Part shown: positions 12,736-50,589 of the stretch, piece by piece | Layout of the letters: the number at the start of each line of letters is the position of its first letter | Position numbering within the stretch: the first letter of the stretch is position 1 | Assembly: GCA_934130105.1 (NCBI GenBank) | Contig: CAKOXL010000004.1 | Location: 1-63,681 of the forward strand | Source of the DNA: an uncultured Bacilli bacterium | Lineage (GTDB): Bacteria; Bacillota_I; Bacilli_A; RF39; UBA660 | DNA length: 63,681 bases | Direction: 5' to 3' | Notes under the pieces: generated by a model | Databases searched by the model: none | Seen by the model: only the letters and a program-made list of their open reading frames with translations | Told to the model about the DNA's origin: nothing | Position numbers and translations under genes: made by a program

Positions 12736-13866
12736 TTACTCTGCTTCTTTTCTATTATAATTAAAGTTTAAAGGTTTTAGTTCATCTAATACAAACATAC
12801 CATTTTTTCTTATTAATACATCATCGAAATAGATTTCTCCACCACCATAATCTTCTCTTTGAATTAAAACCATATCCCAATGAATCCCAGAATCGTTTCC
12901 GTTGTAACAATCTTTATAAGCTTGACCTGGTGTGAAATGAATGCTTCCTAGTATTTTCTCATCATATAATATATCTCCCATTGGATATAAGATTTCAGGA
13001 TTAAAGCCAAGTGAAAATTCACCTACATATCTAGCACCTTCATCAGTATCAAATATTTCATTTAGTTTTTCATTATCTTCATCACAAGTAGCATGAATAA
13101 TTTTACCATCTTTAAATTCTAATGATACGTGGTTATATACTCTTCCTTGATATGGACTAGGTGTATTGTAAGTAATAGTACCATTGACTGATGTTTTTAC
13201 TGGAGCACTATAAAGTTCACCATCTGGTATGTTCATTTCTCCTACACAAGGGATACTGCCCATTCCTTTAATACTAAAGGTTAGATCAGTACCAGGAGAT
13301 ACTATTCTTACTTTATCTGTTTTATCCATTAATTTTTTTAATGGTTTTATTAGCTTGCCCATTTCTTCATAATTAACAGTCATAACATTAAGAGCAAATT
13401 CCATAAACTCGCGTGATGTCATTTTGGCTTTATAGCTATCAAGTAATGATGGGTAATTTAATAATACCCATTTTCTTTGGTTTACTCTTACATCACTTGA
13501 TGGAAGTAAGGCTTGACTTAATTTCTTTGACATTTCTCCAGATGCATTTTTGTTTTCATAGTCATTAGTAGCATAACGGATATTAATAAATGAATCAAAT
13601 AACTCTACCTCATTTTCCTGAATTTTTTTAAGTAGTTTAATTCTACCATCATTATTTCCTTCAGTAAGTTTAGCTCCAAGTATAGGATCATTAATTTTTA
13701 AACATGGTACTCCGCCATTTTTATAAATTTCATCAATTAAATAAGAAATAAATTCTCTTGTTTCCATTGATTGTGTTGTGATTAATACTTTCTCATCTTT
13801 TTCTACTCTAATTGAATAATTAACAATTAAACTTGCTAGTTCTTTTAATTTATCACTCATTTTCAC
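12736..13866 (-). CDS. Aminopeptidase, M29 (AmpS/PepS) family
   Basis: Overall M29-like sequence (IPDGELYSAP, GFNP, HWDMV). Confidence 0.8.
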   Translation of the reverse strand: MKMSDKLKELASLIVNYSIRVEKDEKVLITTQSMETREFISYLIDEIYKNGGVPCLKINDPILGAKLTEGNNDGRIKLLKKIQENEVELFDSFINIRYATNDYENKNASGEMSKKLSQALLPSSDVRVNQRKWVLLNYPSLLDSYKAKMTSREFMEFALNVMTVNYEEMGKLIKPLKKLMDKTDKVRIVSPGTDLTFSIKGMGSIPCVGEMNIPDGELYSAPVKTSVNGTITYNTPSPYQGRVYNHVSLEFKDGKIIHATCDEDNEKLNEIFDTDEGARYVGEFSLGFNPEILYPMGDILYDEKILGSIHFTPGQAYKDCYNGNDSGIHWDMVLIQREDYGGGEIYFDDVLIRKNGMFVLDELKPLNFNYNRKEAE

Positions 13867-13907
13867 TCTTTCCTTTCTTAAACATAAAATACTTTAGAGG
13901 TGATTTT

Positions 13908-14159
13908 ATGTATTCATACAATAATAATATGGATAAATATTCTAGAAATATGTATAGTCAAAATATAAATCCAAATAACGAACGTTTTGCTGGTGGATTT
14001 GTTGCACCATTACTACTTGGTGGCGTTGCTGGTTACGCAATAGGAAATACTAATAGACCAAATTACTACTATCCACAACCATATCAACCATACTATTATT
14101 ATCCTTATCCATACCCTACTTATTATAGCAATAATTATTACTATAATCCATATAATTAG
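13908..14159 (+). CDS. Small protein with a Gly-rich TM segment and a Tyr/Pro/Asn-rich tail
   Basis: AGAGGTGA RBS followed by an ATG at 13908. Sequence includes FAGGFVAPLLLGGVAGYAIG, then YYYPQPYQPYYYYPYPYPTYY. Confidence 0.45.
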   Translation: MYSYNNNMDKYSRNMYSQNINPNNERFAGGFVAPLLLGGVAGYAIGNTNRPNYYYPQPYQPYYYYPYPYPTYYSNNYYYNPYN

Positions 14160-14190
14160 TAAGAAGAGCTTAATTATTTTAAGTATAAAA

Positions 14191-14210
14191 AAGGTTGCAT
14201 TAACAACCTT
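14191..14210. terminator. Bidirectional intrinsic terminator
   Basis: AAGGTTG-loop-CAACCTT hairpin flanked by an A-run and a T-run, between convergent genes. Confidence 0.5.
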
Positions 14211-14224
14211 TTTTATTTATAACT

Positions 14225-15055
14225 TTATTTTGATAATTTTTTTATAGTATCGATATCTAATCCTGTTAAATCAGATATAGTAGAAATATCCATATCTTTA
14301 GCAAGCATGTTTTTAGCGATTTCTAATTGCTTCTTACTGGCACCTTCTTCAATACCATCTTCATAAGCTATTGCTTTTTCGGTATTTTTAATTAGTTCTT
14401 GGTCTTCTTCATAACTCATAAAACTTTGAAATGTTTCTTGATTATTTAAATCTGTCAATTTATCTTCATACTCTTTCACAAAATCATCTCCAATCGATAT
14501 TTTGTCAAGGTTATTTTGGTCTAAATCCAACATAATTAAATGTTTATATTCATTAACCTTGTTGTTATCTAAATTGTACCAATAATCAGTAATTTTGTCC
14601 ATATTGAATTCAATAATTTCAAAGTTATCAATATACCTTTTATCATTCTTATTCATAACATAATAATAAGAAACATCATCTACTTTTTTACTTAATCCAT
14701 AACTTAAATCAATATGTATGAATTTAGTTTTATAATCATACCTTTTACCACGGATTACTTTTCTAGAATAAATGTTAGTAAAATAAATAAAATTTCTAGT
14801 ATGCAAATAATCAGAATAGTTACAGTTTAACTCGATATGTAGATATTCATCACCATCTTTAACTAACACATCTACTATTTTAACTTTATCAATAGTACTA
14901 ATTACTGGTAATTCGTTTCTTAAAAATTCTATAATTTCTACATCCTTTTTTAAGATTCTAGATAATAATTTTTTTAATAATATGGGATTATCCTCATCAC
15001 AAAAGATAGTTTTAAATACTCGATCATATTTAGCCGTATAAAACTTAGTTACCAT
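14225..15055 (-). CDS. PD-(D/E)XK nuclease family transposase / Rpn-like recombination-promoting nuclease
   Basis: The N-terminus (YDRVFKTIF...) and the C-terminal helix-turn-helix-like tail (AKNML..ISDLTGLDIDTIKKL) are typical of this family. A paralog lies at 63496-63681. Confidence 0.7.
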   Translation of the reverse strand: MVTKFYTAKYDRVFKTIFCDEDNPILLKKLLSRILKKDVEIIEFLRNELPVISTIDKVKIVDVLVKDGDEYLHIELNCNYSDYLHTRNFIYFTNIYSRKVIRGKRYDYKTKFIHIDLSYGLSKKVDDVSYYYVMNKNDKRYIDNFEIIEFNMDKITDYWYNLDNNKVNEYKHLIMLDLDQNNLDKISIGDDFVKEYEDKLTDLNNQETFQSFMSYEEDQELIKNTEKAIAYEDGIEEGASKKQLEIAKNMLAKDMDISTISDLTGLDIDTIKKLSK

Positions 15056-15139
15056 ATTTTTCCTCCTTTTGTGCCATAATAACAGATAATAATAAGTATG
15101 TAAAATGTTCTATTTTATAAATTCAATGCAAAATAAAAA

Positions 15140-15177
15140 CCAATTTTAAATAATTACTAAAGAAAACTTAAAATTGG
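15140..15177 (-). terminator. Intrinsic terminator downstream of the DGR RT
   Basis: Minus strand: CCAATTTTAA...TTAAAATTGG stem followed by TTTTTATTTT. Confidence 0.55.
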
Positions 15178-15210
15178 CTTCATTATTTACTTTAATTTAC
15201 AAAAACATAT

Positions 15211-16242
15211 CTATTTTAAATAATCTTTGATAATAAACCTATCATGATATTTATTAATTAAATGGTAAGTATTAGCATGTCTTGCATGTGCTCTCCATGA
15301 ATTATAGCACATACGAATATTCGTAAAATCGAGCCTGTTATTTATAAAGTCAGTGTTTGCTTTTTTAACTAAAGCTTTTATTTTTTGCTTACTTCTTTTT
15401 CTGATTAAAAGATGGGTTTCATAAATTCGATATCCGCAAAAATCAACGCCTAAATTGTTAGGATAGTATTTACTTTTCCTATTAAGGTTAAGTTTTAATT
15501 TTTGATTTAAGAAAACTTCAATAAGTAATTTATATTTTCTTGCTTCTTTTTTATCGTTAACAAGTAATATAAAATCATCCATATAGCGGACATAATATTT
15601 AATCTTAAGGACTTCTTTTATATAATGATCAAGCTCATTTAAATATATATTAGCAAAGAATTGGGAGGTATAATTTCCAATAGGAATTCCTTTTCTATTA
15701 TTAGTATCATAAATTAATTTTCTAGTAAAAGTTAATAGTTTTTTATCACTAATATGGTGTTTCATAATTTCAAACAAAATATCTTTATCAATACTATAAA
15801 AATACTTTTGAATATCGCATTTTAAGATATAGTAATTATGTTTATTATGCCACATGATTTGCATATAATGTTGCAGTTGTTTTACCGCTTTATGAGTGCC
15901 TCTATTTTTAATGCAAGCATAAGTATCTTTTATGAACTTAGGTAAAATATATGGTAGTATAAACTCTTCAACATACCACTGATGGATAATTCTATCACGG
16001 TAAGGTAATGATTGAATAACTCTTTCTTTAGGTTCTGAAATTATAAATTCGTGATACTTTCCAACTTGGTAAGTATTATTTTTTACACTGCTATACAAAT
16101 TCATAAGGTTATTTTCTAAATCCATCTCAAATAAAATTACATCACTACGATTTCTTTTATTCTTAGAAGCTCTAATATGAGCATTATAAAATAGTATATA
16201 ATCAAGTTTATTATCAAACTGCTGTTTTATCGTTTTTGGCAT
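15211..16242 (-). CDS. DGR-type reverse transcriptase
   Basis: RT motifs KCDIQKYFYSID, IPIGNYTSQFFANIYL (the DGR-typical IGxxxSQ) and YVRYMDDF, with an adjacent TR/VR pair. Confidence 0.92.
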   Translation of the reverse strand: MPKTIKQQFDNKLDYILFYNAHIRASKNKRNRSDVILFEMDLENNLMNLYSSVKNNTYQVGKYHEFIISEPKERVIQSLPYRDRIIHQWYVEEFILPYILPKFIKDTYACIKNRGTHKAVKQLQHYMQIMWHNKHNYYILKCDIQKYFYSIDKDILFEIMKHHISDKKLLTFTRKLIYDTNNRKGIPIGNYTSQFFANIYLNELDHYIKEVLKIKYYVRYMDDFILLVNDKKEARKYKLLIEVFLNQKLKLNLNRKSKYYPNNLGVDFCGYRIYETHLLIRKRSKQKIKALVKKANTDFINNRLDFTNIRMCYNSWRAHARHANTYHLINKYHDRFIIKDYLK

Positions 16243-16586
16243 GATTTAATCCATCCACCTAATAAATTACATATGTTGGTTATTTTTTTACTCCATGCTT
16301 TATAATTATTGTTGTTAATATATTTTCTTTTATATGAAACTCTAACTAGTACTTTTAAAAATTTTATTTCATTATCTAGTAATGATAGATTATTTAATTT
16401 ATCGACTTTATCATATTGTTTATAAGCATTAATTATATATTTAATACCATTATAAGTAGTATTTTTAATTGTAGATACTAAAGATAATTTTTCACATTTA
16501 GGATATTTTTCAGTAATCATCTCTGTATAATAAATAAGTTCTATATATTGCTTATAAATTATTAGCTCTTCTACTACTTTAATCAT
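16227..16586 (-). CDS. avd: Avd-like accessory variability determinant (four-helix-bundle / 23S rRNA IVS protein family)
   Basis: 119 aa, basic and helical, with a KYPKCEKLSLVSTIKN..Y motif like the FPKxEKxxL family. It overlaps the RT start. Confidence 0.75.
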   Translation of the reverse strand: MIKVVEELIIYKQYIELIYYTEMITEKYPKCEKLSLVSTIKNTTYNGIKYIINAYKQYDKVDKLNNLSLLDNEIKFLKVLVRVSYKRKYINNNNYKAWSKKITNICNLLGGWIKSCQKR

Positions 16587-16974
16587 TTAGTATCACCTTT
16601 AATTCATAAAGAAAGTTGATTGCTTCAAGTGGTGTTAGTGTATTTATATCTATATTTTTTAATTTCTGTTCTAATTTAATATATTTTTGGGGAATTTCAG
16701 TCTTTTTTATTATGTTTTCTATTTCTTTTGTTTCAACTATCTGGATATCTAATTTATGATTATGGAAAACGCGCATATAATCTTCTAGTTTAACGTCTGG
16801 GAAACCACATTTATTTACTTCGTTCGTAAATTTGGTTTGTTTTAATACTACATACTGATTAATAGTATTAGCATCTTCTGATATGAAAATATAAAATTTT
16901 CCATTATGAAAAAGATATAATTTATCAGGATTATCTTGTTTTAATTTTAAATATTCATTATAAATTTTACTCAT
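16579..16974 (-). CDS. MutS domain-I-like small protein (DGR MSL-type accessory)
   Basis: YLKLKQDNPDKLYLFHNGKFYIFISEDANT...CGFP...Y resembles the MutS mismatch-binding N-domain (YxxxKxxxPDxxLLFRxGDFYExFxxDA...AGxP). A GAAGGAG RBS precedes the ATG at 16974. Confidence 0.6.
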   Translation of the reverse strand: MSKIYNEYLKLKQDNPDKLYLFHNGKFYIFISEDANTINQYVVLKQTKFTNEVNKCGFPDVKLEDYMRVFHNHKLDIQIVETKEIENIIKKTEIPQKYIKLEQKLKNIDINTLTPLEAINFLYELKVILND

Positions 16975-17001
16975 ACTACTCCTTCTTTCTAAAAAATATT
17001 T

Positions 17002-17032
17002 AAAAAAAAGCAGCACAAAAAAATTGTACTGC
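17002..17032 (-). terminator. Intrinsic terminator between the TR spacer and the accessory genes
   Basis: Minus strand: GCAGTACA-ATTTTTT-TGTGCTGC (8-bp stem with one G-U pair) followed by T8. Confidence 0.55.
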
Positions 17033-17340
17033 TAATCATGATATCTGATATTCGTATATTACTACTAACCAAATACCACTATTTATGTGTTTCTTTGAAG
17101 TTCAAAGAGGAATTTGATTTCTACGATAAACACTCAAAAATTATCCTTGAATAATTTTAATAGAATGAATTTAATTAAATTTTATATTGTAGTCTAAGAG
17201 CGAGAACGACACGGAACGAAATGTTGGTGTTCGTACCACCTGTGTTGTTGTTGAACGCAAAGGAACCGGCTTCAGTGCCATTGTTCCAATTGCCACCACG
17301 TTCGAACCAAGGGTTAGAAGAATTAACAAAGTTGGCGTTT
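17010..17340 (-). ncRNA. Putative DGR RNA (TR plus about 165-nt spacer ending at a terminator)
   Basis: The TR is noncoding: its frame runs into a stop after VVLALRLQYKI and has no RBS. A noncoding spacer and a terminator hairpin follow it. Confidence 0.45.
17198..17340 (-). repeat. DGR template repeat (TR)
   Basis: 143-bp match to 17554-17696. All differences are at plus-strand T, which is A on the coding strand. The frame is rich in AAC (Asn) codons. Confidence 0.92.
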
Positions 17341-17430
17341 GAAAAATGAGAAAAAAATACTACCTTTACAATCAAATCCCTACATTTGTACTATATATAT
17401 TTCAAAATTACAAATGCCATAATTTAAAGT

Positions 17431-17467
17431 CTCCCGATTTTTTTCAAAAAAGGGAAAAAATCGGGAG
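17431..17467. other. Perfect 13-bp-stem hairpin between VR and TR
   Basis: CTCCCGATTTTTT (17431-17443) pairs with AAAAAATCGGGAG (17455-17467) around an 11-nt loop. No canonical U-tract follows on either strand. Confidence 0.6.
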
Positions 17468-17542
17468 CCATAGAACTTACCGCAGTAAAAAATATGAAGA
17501 TAAAGATTTTATCATACTATCTACTACGGGGTTAATAGCACA

Positions 17543-19453
17543 TTACTGTGCTGGAGCGAGAACGACACGGAACGAAATGCTGGTGTACGTACCACCTGTG
17601 CTGAGGCTGAACGCAAAGGAACCGGCTTCAGTGCCATTGCTCCAATGGCCACCACGTACGAACCAAGGGTAAGAAGAATGAACAAAGTAGGCGTAATCTT
17701 TATACCAACTAGATTTATATCTAGTACTACCATCTGGATCTTTTTCACTACCAAATGGTCCCATCTCTCCTGTTGCATCTCCTAATATTCTGTTATTATA
17801 ATTTGTATTTACAGTTGATGCATATTTATTCCAGTACTTAGTGTAAGTACTATCACTAAAGAAATTAGGATATAAACTAGTTATACCACTTGATCCACCA
17901 ACTGTTGTTGCTTTAGTAGTATATCCCATTACATACTCCCATGCGCCACCTGACATATCATATATTCCACTATAATTACCAGTTGTTGATGAAACAGTAG
18001 AATTATTATTAAAATAATTAACGGTATATGTTCCATCAACACCTAAACTAGTTGACTCTACTCTATTACCTTCTATACTTATTCCGCTATTATATCCTAA
18101 GGTTGGTTCACTTGTTCCAGAATATCCGGTTATATAACTTGAGTTATTATTTATTCTTACACTTGCTTGACTACCATATACTGAATGCTGTAAATAAGCT
18201 ACTGCTCCCCATTCTGTATTTTTCATCATATGACTATCTAAATTACGATTATAATCATAACTATTCTTGAATGCGTTCCCAACAGTTATACTTCGCCAAC
18301 TATATACATTGGGTTTTATGATAATTTTACTTGTATCTACACTATTTACTTGGGCAGACGTCGTTGATGTTGCTCCATCATATCCTGTTTCAAACTTTCC
18401 TACCCATAAACCATTTGTATCAAAAGCTATGAATGCTGGATGAGTTAGATATGTTCCTACCGTACTTCCAGTAGATGGTGTTGTTTCTTTATTTTCAAAT
18501 ATAATATCTATTGTTTGAGTAGAATTTCCAATACTTGTTAGTCCTGTATATGTTCCTTCATTAAATATTTTATATCTATATCTTGGTATCCATACAAAGT
18601 ATGATTCAATATTTGTTTCTGGTATTACTTCTCCATCTTGGTAAGTAATACTTTCATCTTTTAAGATAACGCTATTAGCCCACTTTTTATCAGCATAACT
18701 ATACCAAGCTGTTGTAGTATCCGCTTTAGTTACTACTCCTGTATCTGATATTACTACTGGTATTAGATTATCAGATATAACTGGATATGCTCCATTTAAA
18801 ATGGCTTCTTTATAAGCTATTTTATCTTGCTCTAATACTTTACCTGTTGAATATACATTTACTGTTATCGTAAACGCTTTATTATTTATGCTTCCATCTG
18901 AAAAATCAGTATCATCTGATAACCACATTCTTAATCTAAAATTCTTTTCATAGTTTGATGTATTAGCTGATACTTCTCCTTCATAGATAGTCTTTTCTAT
19001 TACCCCATCCGGTACTTTAGTATTAGTTTGAATTAGATTTGAATATTTATCTAATAGTATTTCCTTTTCAGTTCCATCTACTTCAGTTAAGTATAACTTT
19101 ACGTCATCTTCATCTAAGGTAGAATCACTCTTTTTTCTTGCTGTTACTTCATATGAAATACTAGAGTTCATTTCTATTGTTGAGGTTATCTTAAAATCAA
19201 ATACCTTTCCTTCACCTGTTTGAAGTTTTCCTTCTTCATCACTTATTGGAAATGCATCAGTTAAACTTATACCTTTTCCTATTCCACTTACTTCAGTATA
19301 TAGAAAGTTTATCTTACCTGTTTTTACGATATTATCAGTTACACCTGTTTTAGAATAAGTGAATAGTGAATAACTTACTCCAACTGTTATCAATATTAAA
19401 CTTAATACTGCTATTAGTGTCAAAAATATCTGCTTCTTCTTACTATTTTTCAT
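17543..19453 (-). CDS. DGR target protein: N-terminally anchored or secreted, with a C-terminal FGE-sulfatase/C-type-lectin-like (CLec) domain carrying the VR
   Basis: Signal/TM sequence and a VSYSLFTYSKTG motif that may be a SipW/TasA-like signal. FGE-like GGAWEYVMG. The C-terminus RGGHWSNGTEAGSFAFSLSTGGTYTSISFRVVLA equals the VR. Confidence 0.9.
   Translation of the reverse strand: MKNSKKKQIFLTLIAVLSLILITVGVSYSLFTYSKTGVTDNIVKTGKINFLYTEVSGIGKGISLTDAFPISDEEGKLQTGEGKVFDFKITSTIEMNSSISYEVTARKKSDSTLDEDDVKLYLTEVDGTEKEILLDKYSNLIQTNTKVPDGVIEKTIYEGEVSANTSNYEKNFRLRMWLSDDTDFSDGSINNKAFTITVNVYSTGKVLEQDKIAYKEAILNGAYPVISDNLIPVVISDTGVVTKADTTTAWYSYADKKWANSVILKDESITYQDGEVIPETNIESYFVWIPRYRYKIFNEGTYTGLTSIGNSTQTIDIIFENKETTPSTGSTVGTYLTHPAFIAFDTNGLWVGKFETGYDGATSTTSAQVNSVDTSKIIIKPNVYSWRSITVGNAFKNSYDYNRNLDSHMMKNTEWGAVAYLQHSVYGSQASVRINNNSSYITGYSGTSEPTLGYNSGISIEGNRVESTSLGVDGTYTVNYFNNNSTVSSTTGNYSGIYDMSGGAWEYVMGYTTKATTVGGSSGITSLYPNFFSDSTYTKYWNKYASTVNTNYNNRILGDATGEMGPFGSEKDPDGSTRYKSSWYKDYAYFVHSSYPWFVRGGHWSNGTEAGSFAFSLSTGGTYTSISFRVVLAPAQ
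17554..17696 (-). repeat. DGR variable repeat (VR) with a GC-rich IMH-like 3' end
   Basis: See the TR entry. The 3' end on the coding strand, CCGTGTCGTTCTCGCTC, is identical in TR and VR; the flanks then diverge (VR CAGC, TR TTAG). Confidence 0.92.
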
Positions 19454-48687: not shown

Positions 48688-50589
48688 TTATGGTGCTAAG
48701 ACAATACGGAATGAAAATGAGGCATGCATGCCACCTGTATGGTGGACGAATGCAAAAGAACCAGCTTCAGTGCCATGGTTCCAATCGCAACCACGTGCGA
48801 ACCAAGAGTTAGAAGAAAAAGCAAAGTAAGCATAATTTTTGTACCAACTAGATTTATATTTAGGACCACCATCTGGATCTAATTCACTACCAAATGGTCC
48901 CATCTCTCCTGTTGCATCTCCTAATATTTTATTATTATAATTTGTATTTACAGTTGATGTATATTTGTCCCAGTATTTTGAATAAGTGCTATCGCTAAAG
49001 AAATTAGGATATAAACTGGTTATACCACTTGCTCATCCTACTGTTTGATCTCCAGTAGCGTAACCCATTACATACTCCCATGCGCCACCACTCATATCAT
49101 ATATTCCACTATAATTACCAGTTGTTGATGAAACATTAGAATTATTATTAAAATAATTAACGGTATATGTTCCATCAACACCTAAACTAGTTGACTCTAC
49201 TCTATTACCTTCTATACTTATTCCGCTATTATATCCTAAGGTTGGTTCTATAGTGGCGGAATATCCAGTTATATAACTTGAGTTATTATTTATTCTTACA
49301 CTTGATTGGCTACCATAAGCTGAATGCTGTAAATAAGCTACTGCTCCCCATTCGGTATTTTTCATCATATGACTATCTAAATTTCTTTTGTAATCATAAC
49401 TATTTTTAAATGCGTTTCCAGCAGTTATATTTCGCCAACTATATACATTGGGTTTTATTATAATTTTACTTGTATCTACACTATTTACTTGTGAAGCTTC
49501 AGTTGTAGTCGCACCATCATATCCTGTTTCAAACTTTCCTACCCATAAACCATTCGTATCAAAAGCTAAGAATGCTGGATGAGTTAGATATGTTCCTACT
49601 TTAGTTCCAGTAGATGGTGTTGTTTCTTTATTTTCAAATATAATATCTATTGTTTGAGTAGAATCTTCAATACCTGTTAATCCTGTATAAGTTCCTTCAT
49701 TAAATATTTTATATCTATATCTTGGTATCCATACAAAGTATGATTCAATATTATCTTCTGGTATTATTTCACCATCTTGATAAGTAATACTTTCATCTTT
49801 TAAGATAACACTATTAGCCCACTTTTTATCTGAATAACTATACCAAGCTGTTGTAGTATCTGCTTTAGTTACTACTCCTGTATCTGATATTACTACTGGT
49901 ACTAGATTATCAGATATAACTGGATCTGCTCCATTTAAAATAGCTTCTTTATAAGTTTTATCTTGCTCTACTACTTTTCCATTTGCATATACATTTACGG
50001 TTATTATAAATGTCTTATTATTCATATCCCCTTGGGAAAAGTCTGTATCATTATCTATCCACATTCTTAATCTAAAGTTCTTTTCATAATTTGTTGTATT
50101 AGCTGATACTTCTCCTTCATAAATGGTCTTTTCTACTACGCCATCTGGTACTTTAGTATTAGTTTGTGTTAGATTTGAATATTTATCTAGTAGAATCTCT
50201 TCTTCTGTTCCATCTATTTCGGTTAAATATAATTTTACCTTATCTTCATCTAAGGTAGAATCACTCTTTTTTCTTGCTGTTACTTCATATGAAATACTAG
50301 AGTTCATTTCTATTGTTGAAGTTATTTTAAAATCAAATACCTTTCCCTCGCCTGTTTGAAGTTTTCCTTCTTCATCACTTATTGGAAATGCATCAGTTAA
50401 ACTTATACCTTTTCCTATGCCACTTACTTCAGTATACAAGAAGTTTATCTTACCTGTTTTTACGATATTATCAGTTACACCTGTTTTAGAATAAGTAAAT
50501 AGTGAATAGCTTACTCCTACTGTAATTAGTATTAAGCTTAATACTGCTACTAGTGTTAAAAATATTTGTTTCTTTTTATTACTTTTCAT
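48688..50589 (-). pseudogene. Paralog 2 of the DGR target gene, interrupted by a single in-frame TGA (49033-49035)
   Basis: ORFs 49033-50589 and 48688-48903 are in the same frame. The protein is collinear with the 636-aa target (..GAWEYVMGYATGDQTVG*ASGITSLYPNFF..). Confidence 0.75.
48693..48835 (-). repeat. Degenerate VR-like segment (VR2)
   Basis: Aligns without gaps to the TR, with about 37 mismatches. About 20 of these are at non-adenine positions, and the GC-rich IMH-like end is replaced by AT-richer synonymous codons. Confidence 0.75.

Follow-up and report, generated by a model that had tools for sequence, protein, structure and literature searches.

The window analysed here, a 63,681-nt contig stretch from an uncultured gut Bacilli bacterium, carries on its minus strand a compact cassette of ~4.3 kb (15211-19453) that we identify, with very little doubt, as a genuine and complete chromosomal diversity-generating retroelement (DGR) of the type that combines a MutS-like (MSL) accessory protein with Avd. 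DGRs are, to our knowledge, the sole natural systems for targeted protein hypermutation in prokaryotes, and their density is highest in the human gut. The type is already described, as the MSL-containing "architecture D", and the present element adds no new principle to it; its predicted effect is to rewrite ~19 codons at the tip of a putative surface protein. A sequence-only reading of the same DNA had proposed a complete DGR in which the target gene with its variable region (VR), the template repeat (TR), a MutS-like gene, an Avd-like gene and the reverse transcriptase (RT) follow one another on the minus strand. Both the order and the completeness were recovered, with a DGR-like RT, Avd, MSL, a VR at the 3' end of the target, mismatches confined to adenines, and flanking RNA and DNA elements. 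The parts themselves, the adenine-only pattern, the family of the RT, the covariation of the RNA and the family-wide hypervariability at the templated codons are all direct observations.

The repeat pair and its target protein

The TR (17198-17340, minus strand) comprises 143 nt with 35 adenines, 12 AAY codons and 47.6% G+C, and matches without gaps the VR (17554-17696, minus strand), which corresponds to codons 586-633 of the 636 of the target. When both were compared base by base, 14 mismatches were found, all 14 of them at coding-strand adenines of the TR (7 A>T, 4 A>G and 3 A>C in the direction TR to VR), with 0 mismatches at the 108 non-A positions, a confinement of hypergeometric p = 2.6e-10. 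Two of the mismatches, at 17339 and 17340, fall on the 5' border of the homology, making the exact start of the TR ambiguous and accounting for the "12-14" mismatches of the sequence-only reading; the conservative 141-nt core, with 12 mismatches and 33 A, still gives p = 4.5e-9. A repeat search also returned the pair, as a direct repeat of 141 nt (17198-17338 and 17554-17694, 91% identity, offset 356) and the sole long direct repeat of the region. Thus, the gapless alignment with adenine-only mismatches claimed before is confirmed, and the translations of TR and VR quoted with it are correct, while the description of the VR as the last 143 bp of the coding sequence holds for its location at the 3' end and not for the very end, the VR stopping 8 nt before the stop codon.

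The composition of the TR is that of a template for amino acid replacement, as 31 of its 35 adenines fall at codon positions 1 or 2, no stop codon is reachable by substituting an A of the TR, and ~10^18.5 protein variants are allowed over 19 codons. Both repeats are also much richer in G+C (48-52%) than the window (26%). Their 3' ends are identical across a 24-nt adenine-free stretch, TTTCGTTCCGTGTCGTTCTCGCTC, and diverge completely thereafter. The sequence-only reading had seen there a pair of initiation of mutagenic homing elements (IMH/IMH*), which jointly fix the direction of transfer in DGRs, and of which the sequence description, an identical adenine-free end followed by divergence, is accurate and the function is something that we can only infer; internal IMH/IMH* differences of the Bordetella kind are absent from the 3' segment of TR and VR. 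Sliding the TR along both strands of the window with its A positions ignored retrieved nothing but the known VR and the decayed end of a paralogue at 48693-48835, so that the window holds no second current target of the TR. That decayed end shows 37 differences to the TR, 20 of them at non-adenine positions, and the paralogue is therefore not a current target.

The target gene (17543-19453, minus strand) encodes 636 aa, which begin with a hydrophobic signal or anchor, continue through beta-rich domains and end in a variable domain that is probably ligand-binding. It has >7500 homologues, none with a name and nearly all derived from assembled metagenomes. Across 78 aligned homologues, a mean entropy of 2.85 bits is reached by the 19 VR codons with a TR adenine at position 1 or 2, versus 0.83 bits for the other 29 VR codons and 0.84 bits for the remainder of the protein, indicating that the target family is diversified at exactly the templated sites.

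The CLec/FGE-like (C-type lectin/formylglycine-generating enzyme) scaffold that the sequence-only reading attributed to the variable domain finds its backing among relatives rather than in the window protein. The FGE-sulfatase family (PF03781) is matched by 24 of 73 relatives, all below threshold (the best with 22.6 bits versus a cut-off of 23.3, over profile positions ~49-210), and the framework of the variable domain ends RGG...W...SFRVVL. For the 636-aa protein itself, neither Pfam, NCBIfam nor PDB gave any sequence match, a PDB profile search returned noise only, and the FGE-sulfatase profile did not match even at E = 10. AlphaFold modelling of the full-length target from the alignment of 78 sequences reached a mean pLDDT of 44.9, and that of the C-terminal domain from 143 sequences a mean pLDDT of 57.1 with a pTM of 0.53, the VR staying below 50 in both; a Foldseek search of the C-terminal domain model against PDB gave no match. 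A CLec/FGE fold is at most suggested for this domain. The matches of the full-length model to N-terminal beta-sandwiches (archaeal bundling pilin, CBM3) were not trusted, with E values of ~1e-4 to 1e-3 and a TM-score of ~0.3.

Regarding the N-terminus, a SipW/TasA-type or prepilin-type signal was considered and rejected, as NCBIfam and Pfam gave nothing for the window protein; the prepilin N_methyl motif is present in 13 of the 73 relatives. The same variable C-terminal domain is found joined to varied N-terminal modules (P0163, P0185, P0188, P0173 and others), including Laminin_G_3 in 2 of the 73. These prepilin and Laminin_G_3 fusions point to display on pilus-like or other surface structures.

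A second target paralogue lies in the window at 48688-50589 (minus strand) and ends in the decayed VR-like segment described above. At ~49033-49035, an in-frame TGA interrupts it in place of the Gly codon found in the intact paralogue. The ortholog of this broken gene is intact (634 aa, P0005) in L083, within the same ProRS-RadC-MreC context (L-numbers denote contigs or loci of relatives).

Cassette genes and the elements flanking the repeats

The RT gene (15211-16242, minus strand) encodes 343 aa that match RVT_1 (7.6e-17) and, as noted in the sequence-only reading, carry the DGR-typical IGNYTSQ and YMDD motifs. Its best PDB sequence match is the 328-aa RT of entries 8ub7-8ube (E = 4.4e-44, residues 19-335), which we take to be the Bordetella phage DGR bRT on account of its length, the DGR-typical motifs in the alignment and the associated cryo-EM paper. 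The alignment to 8ub7 places IGNYTSQFFANIY over IGSLTSQLFANVY, IGNYTSQ over IGSLTSQ and YMDD over YMDD. Other RTs in PDB follow at a great distance (group II intron, 6.7e-15; retron-type, 4.7e-13; Drt3a, 3.8e-7), so that the match to the Bordetella DGR enzyme, aligned end to end, beats the other RT classes by ~30 orders of magnitude. Together with its I/LGxxxSQ and YxDD motifs, the protein is by all these sequence features a DGR reverse transcriptase.

Upstream of the RT gene, avd (16227-16586, minus strand) encodes a basic protein of 119 aa (pI 9.6) that matches Pfam bAvd (6.8e-20; 72 bits with a cut-off of 40), Avd proteins being basic four-helix bundles. It overlaps the MSL gene by 8 nt and the RT gene by 16 nt, the three genes being mutually overlapping as expected for one operon.

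The MSL gene (16579-16974, minus strand) encodes 131 aa of pI 6.8 that match Pfam MutS_I (1.6e-12). Against PDB, it aligns to residues 14-94 of MutS and, separately, with its tail to MutS residues 817-852. The last ~36 residues of MSL thus correspond to the very end of MutS, where the oligomerisation region lies (E. coli 817-852), and precomputed annotations of the identical MSL gene in other contigs give a weak MutS_C as well. The protein looks like a "mini-MutS" devoid of the ATPase, made of domain I and a C-terminal segment. F-x-E is the mismatch-binding motif of MutS, whose Phe and Glu contact the mismatch; MSL retains the Phe and not the Glu (FYI versus FYE). An alternative start at GTG 17016 would extend the protein to 145 aa (16579-17016). 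ATG 16974 is most likely the start, because a GAAGGAG ribosome-binding site lies upstream of it and GTG 17016 falls inside a terminator hairpin; the gene is likewise called as 131 aa in L084 and L085. The MutS-like gene of the sequence-only reading is therefore present, with its start moved from GTG 17016 to ATG 16974. No HRDC match was found in the cassette. Directly downstream of the RT gene, a PD-(D/E)XK "transposase_31"/Rpn-like gene is found (14225-15055, minus strand), which L084 and L085 carry too and which may be linked to the DGR or simply adjoin it.

Relatives of the RT occur in >555 species-representative genomes, mostly metagenome-assembled genomes (MAGs) of gut Bacilli, the best being 69% identical, and the counts over 80 given here and below refer to the best 80 RT-related loci. 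Avd is found in all of them (80/80) and MSL in 59, with the order target-MSL-Avd-RT in 33, while in 37 the locus has its own TR/VR pairs, likewise biased to adenines.

Directly 3' of the TR, a structured non-coding RNA of ~160 nt ("Sp-like", 17035-17197, minus strand) is related to Rfam RT-14. In the direction of transcription, the elements follow each other as upstream duplex strand (17370-17380), TR, helix A (17192-17185 with its return strand at 17128-17121), H1 stem-loop with the conserved loop TCAAGG (17167-17131), return strand of helix A, downstream duplex strand (17119-17109), H2 stem-loop (17108-17092), A-rich stretch (17091-17080) and H3 stem-loop (17079-17038), all on the minus strand. 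The upstream strand, GGGATTTGATT, of 11 nt and 29 nt upstream of the TR, is complementary when read from 17380 to 17370 to AATCAAATTCC (17119-17109), both forming an 11-bp long-range duplex that brackets the TR. In an unbiased search, a perfect complement (G-U allowed) was found upstream of the TR in 67 of 83 units, versus 1 of 83 with the strand shuffled, and many compensatory variants are observed, such as GGTCATAGGTT with AATTTATGACC. By analogy, the 5' strand would correspond to the avd strand of the "cPRT Stop" duplex in Bordetella, and the roles of the individual helices we likewise infer from analogy.

The ~160 nt after the TR are conserved across related loci, and so is their pairing. 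In a MAFFT alignment of 16 loci, 79% of the cells are paired versus 65% when shuffled, with a covariation of 0.443 versus 0.203 and of 0.10-0.15 in slid controls. An alignment of 116 units fitted to the model, and therefore leaning towards it, gives 88.5% versus 63.4% paired and a covariation of 0.539 versus 0.173. The covariance model R1, built without the terminator, scores 144 bits at the window, the highest among all loci.

At a relaxed threshold, Rfam RT-14 (RF02921) matches 17037-17163 (minus strand) with 40 bits (E = 5.8e-4), missing the gathering score of 48.1; the gathering score is passed, with 51-54 bits, at L066:4939-5069, L054:7122-7271 and L030:1009-1144. The RNA of the window is accordingly best described as a divergent relative of RT-14. 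This motif was published as one found near RT genes, its role being left open between retron and DGR; RT-10 alone was linked to a DGR (Weinberg et al. 2017, NAR 45:10811). As RT-14 coincides, in this DGR clade, with the RNA directly 3' of the TR, the orphan motif would acquire a role, that of the RNA which follows the TR in DGRs.

The TR RNA would end at an intrinsic-terminator-like hairpin followed by a T-run (17001-17033, minus strand), just before the ribosome-binding site of MSL, and an equivalent hairpin and T-run is visible at the end of the RNA in most related loci. No promoter for the TR RNA is named here, a promoter scan having returned no more sites than in shuffled sequence.

On the DNA side, a hairpin flanks the VR at 17537-17552 (minus strand; AGCACA-GTAA-TGTGCT), beginning 2 nt past the homology and with the stop codon of the target in its loop. 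Its DNA fold reaches -5.9 kcal/mol versus -2.9 for shuffles, no equivalent is found after the TR, and hairpins with 3-4-nt loops and different stems occupy the same post-VR position in 13 of 25 related loci. In Bordetella, a post-VR hairpin/cruciform is needed for efficient homing, its structure outweighing its sequence (Guo et al. 2011), and by analogy the present hairpin is a candidate element of this kind for target recognition. Between VR and TR, a 13-bp perfect inverted repeat, CTCCCGATTTTTT ... AAAAAATCGGGAG (17431-17467, minus strand), is a possible terminator of the target gene, which would separate it from the TR transcription unit.

Rival readings, activity and template arrays

Several observations weigh against the cassette being a complete and working DGR. 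Avd reaches 73.6 bits with NCBIfam DivGenRetAVD, just under the cut-off of 80, and has no PDB sequence match. Helix A, the candidate template:primer duplex, lies 5 nt beyond the TR/VR homology, the Bordetella equivalent lying inside the TR. Phage DGR hairpins have a GC-rich stem of 7-10 bp and a 4-nt GRNA loop (Guo et al. 2011); the stem of the VR hairpin falls below this with 6 bp and 3 G-C pairs, its GTAA loop is outside the consensus, and the z-score of its fold is a modest -1.9. The fold of the target variable domain is established neither by the two AlphaFold models nor by Foldseek. Finally, the only other assembly that covers the VR has identical VR and TR, and the protein cluster of the target has a single member.

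That assembly emerged from exact-protein look-ups with RT, Avd and MSL, which returned only three other contigs, one of them (L084, from another sample) covering the VR. In L084, the RT, Avd, MSL, TR, VR and downstream flank are identical to those of the window; no differences are found from ~14000 to 18000, and all of them are located in the 5' three quarters of the target gene. Being of near-identical strain, both assemblies say little on activity. When L084:1-1800 is compared with window 18000-19453, the 5' 1400 nt of the target appear divergent (82-95% identity plus an indel block) and match neither window paralogue, suggesting that alleles or paralogues have been exchanged outside the variable part of the target. 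Exact scans of genome and metagenome collections with the adenine-masked TR core, TGGCNCTGNNGCCGGTTCCTTTGCGTTC, found no other copy.

These population data bear on the reading of the cassette as a recently silenced fossil, with readable parts, a retrohoming that has ceased and a VR that is a fixed allele. We consider this unlikely. In its favour are the identity of VR and TR in the sole other covering assembly, the lack of VR variants in the protein collection, a VR hairpin that is short and AT-rich compared with the experimentally optimal ones, and the state of the second window paralogue, which has already become a pseudogene and whose VR-like end has moved away from the TR sequence. On the contrary, a silenced element would have to be reconciled with 0 differences at the 108 non-A positions of TR and VR, with three protein genes that are intact and overlap as in one operon, and with an RNA flanking the TR that keeps every conserved helix and yields the top model score of 144 bits. 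Moreover, the two assemblies represent nearly the same strain, and minor VR alleles are lost from view in a consensus assembly. Together, mismatches confined to adenines, overlapping genes that are all intact and a fully conserved RNA argue for a recent last homing event and for a machinery that is still intact. The "apparently active" of the sequence-only reading is a deduction from this clean pattern and these intact genes, not an observation.

Two further readings deny the cassette its nature as a DGR, and we give hardly any credence to either. If the TR were a duplicated 3' fragment of the target, a pseudogene remnant with a coincidental adenine bias, one could understand that a short open reading frame (ORF) of 66 aa (17175-17375) is readable through it and that the genome contains several target paralogues. 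Nonetheless, chance would place 14 of 14 mismatches at adenines with a probability of 2.6e-10, the TR lies directly upstream of MSL-Avd-RT, covarying RNA elements bracket it in the same place as in dozens of related DGR loci, and real drift, as seen at 48693-48835, produces 37 mismatches of which 20 are at non-A positions. An RT of another class (retron, group II intron or Drt/Abi defence RT), with the repeat unrelated to it, has a chance just as negligible. The NCBIfam models at the top for the RT are indeed those of group II intron RT, Drt3a and retron St85, none of them anywhere near its cut-off, a ranking that may merely reflect that no DGR RT model is among the NCBIfam matches. It is countered by the lead of the Bordetella DGR RT described above, I/LGxxxSQ included, and by the adjoining Avd; neither intron RNA domains nor retron msr/msd nor defence partners came to light, and the cassette has just two Rfam matches, the sub-threshold RT-14 and, on the opposite strand, a weak snoRNA that is presumably a chance match. 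A genuine and complete DGR thus remains the reading that we adopt.

In such a DGR, priming, homing, the role of MSL and present-day activity can be outlined by extrapolation from the Bordetella and Bacteroides systems. An RNA of ~375 nt carrying the TR would be transcribed from the minus strand, from ~17380 to ~17001. The 11-bp duplex between the segment 29 nt upstream of the TR and that in the downstream RNA would close off the TR, the downstream RNA folding into its conserved helices ahead of the intrinsic terminator. RT and Avd would bind this TR RNA, and cDNA synthesis, cis-primed near the 3' end of the TR, would copy it faithfully save at adenines, where any base may enter. The cDNA would then replace the VR at the 3' end of the 636-aa target gene, guided by the 24-nt adenine-free identical 3' segment and aided by the post-VR hairpin. 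The cDNA:VR heteroduplex, dense in mismatches, is the probable substrate of MSL, which could for instance protect it from the mismatch repair of the host; we propose this role because, in Bacteroides, host MutS reduces retrohoming by a factor of 5 to 10 (Macadangdang et al., bioRxiv 2024.11.15.621889). The outcome would be up to ~10^18.5 variants of a secreted or surface-anchored protein, differing at 19 codons of its C-terminal domain.

Whereas the window has one TR unit only, in related loci the unit formed by the TR and its downstream RNA is also found in tandem arrays beside the accessory and RT genes, with a period of ~300-390 nt. At least 2 units are present in 16 of the 80 loci and at least 4 in 9, with a maximum of 11, reached at L030:450-4540; other arrays are in L017, L064, L008, L044, L057, L068, L011 and L043. 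In L030, a TR-like segment is contained in each of the 11 units, which differ from each other mainly at variable codons, and the adjacent VR looks mosaic, its 5' part showing an adenine-only pattern versus unit 2475 and its 3' part versus unit 614. A literature search on DGRs did not find such tandem TR arrays described. A tentative idea, to which we grant a limited chance of being right, is that the TR here is a self-contained RNA gene (upstream duplex strand, TR, RT-14-like RNA and own terminator) that has been amplified into template arrays in sister genomes. If so, targets would be diversified combinatorially from template libraries, beyond adenine mutagenesis alone, and the mini-MutS, with its domain I and oligomerisation tail, would manage the resulting heteroduplexes.

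Genomic context and comparison with known systems

The cassette is surrounded by housekeeping genes (aminopeptidase, NusA, ProRS and others), a UvrD-like helicase, the PD-(D/E)XK gene and an FtsK/SpoIIIE-family ATPase, with no phage genes among its neighbours. A phage origin was considered and rejected in view of these housekeeping flanks and of viral RT relatives that are far more distant than the cellular ones, those on viral contigs being at most 43% identical. The closest ProRS proteins belong to "uncultured Bacilli" gut MAGs, with 87% identity to a MAG from a Hadza sample and 79% to UBA7057. Upstream of the UvrD-like helicase, the segment 21869-32753 (minus strand) encodes a 1526-aa FtsK/SpoIIIE-family ATPase of EssC-like size and domains and a 1916-aa ORF without Pfam match, and may be a type VII-like secretion locus. 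On the plus strand, at 13833-14159, a 108-aa ORF without Pfam match has a C-terminus very rich in Tyr, Pro and Asn (...YYYPQPYQPYYYYPYPYPTYYSNNYYYNPYN), and may be a real gene or a low-complexity artefact.

The window provides a clean and compact DGR example from an uncultured gut Bacilli lineage of reduced genome, in which the cis elements (TR-bracketing duplex, RT-14-like RNA, terminator and VR hairpin) are readable in the sequence. This readability and compactness make it a practical candidate for reconstitution and for addressing the function of MSL and the role of RT-14. Furthermore, the large size of the target family, unnamed by any source, probably marks an important, uncharacterised surface-recognition function in these bacteria.

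Among known systems, MSL-containing DGRs constitute a described class, to which 16 of 372 DGRs belong, avd being present in each (Wu et al. 2018, NAR 46:11), and their architecture D includes the Legionella DGR; Msl is also found in Bacteroides DGRs (Macadangdang et al., bioRxiv 2024.11.15.621889). The present element agrees with both in encoding a small, near-neutral MutS-like protein with Avd and RT and without an HRDC gene, in the position of the TR upstream of the accessory genes, and in a variable protein that is a predicted surface protein. The 131 aa and pI 6.8 of MSL compare with 112-283 aa and pI 7.2 +/- 1.7 for the published proteins. It differs in its host, an uncultured low-G+C gut Bacilli, and in a target family that no source names. 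A possible further difference is the segment of MSL here that resembles the MutS C-terminal oligomerisation region.

The TvpA-type targets of Treponema denticola, which have an FGE-sulfatase/C-type lectin fold, resemble the present one in their C-terminal variable region and in the several target paralogues within the same genome. As differences, the window protein has no FGE-sulfatase match of its own, such a fold being merely a candidate for it, and the Treponema denticola element uses HRDC (Wu et al. 2018), in place of which MSL is found here. With RT-14 (RF02921), a motif defined by its proximity to RT genes, the likeness consists in a full-model match of the RNA 3' of the TR.

The DGR of Bordetella phage BPP-1 (mtd-avd-TR-brt), the prototype for experimental work, shares with the cassette a clearly homologous RT (E = 4.4e-44), Avd, adenine-specific mutagenesis, and a VR located 3' in the target with a hairpin behind it. 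On the contrary, the TR here precedes MSL-avd-RT, the upstream duplex strand is intergenic instead of inside avd, an extra MSL gene is present, and the element is chromosomal and not phage-borne; the VR hairpin has a GTAA loop and a stem with fewer base pairs and a lower G+C content, and the TR RNA apparently has its own terminator. As seen by cryo-EM, the Bordetella RNA presents a template:primer duplex beside the avd:Sp "cPRT Stop" duplex, then a short stem-loop and adenosines, together with Avd-binding and bRT-binding stem-loops. The RNA of the window similarly combines a duplex of sequences upstream and downstream of the TR with a following stem-loop, an A-rich stretch and further stem-loops. 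Hence, the elements that the present analysis adds to the sequence-only reading, namely the VR hairpin, the TR-bracketing duplex, the structured RNA and the terminator, together appear to mirror the architecture of the Bordetella DGR RNA.

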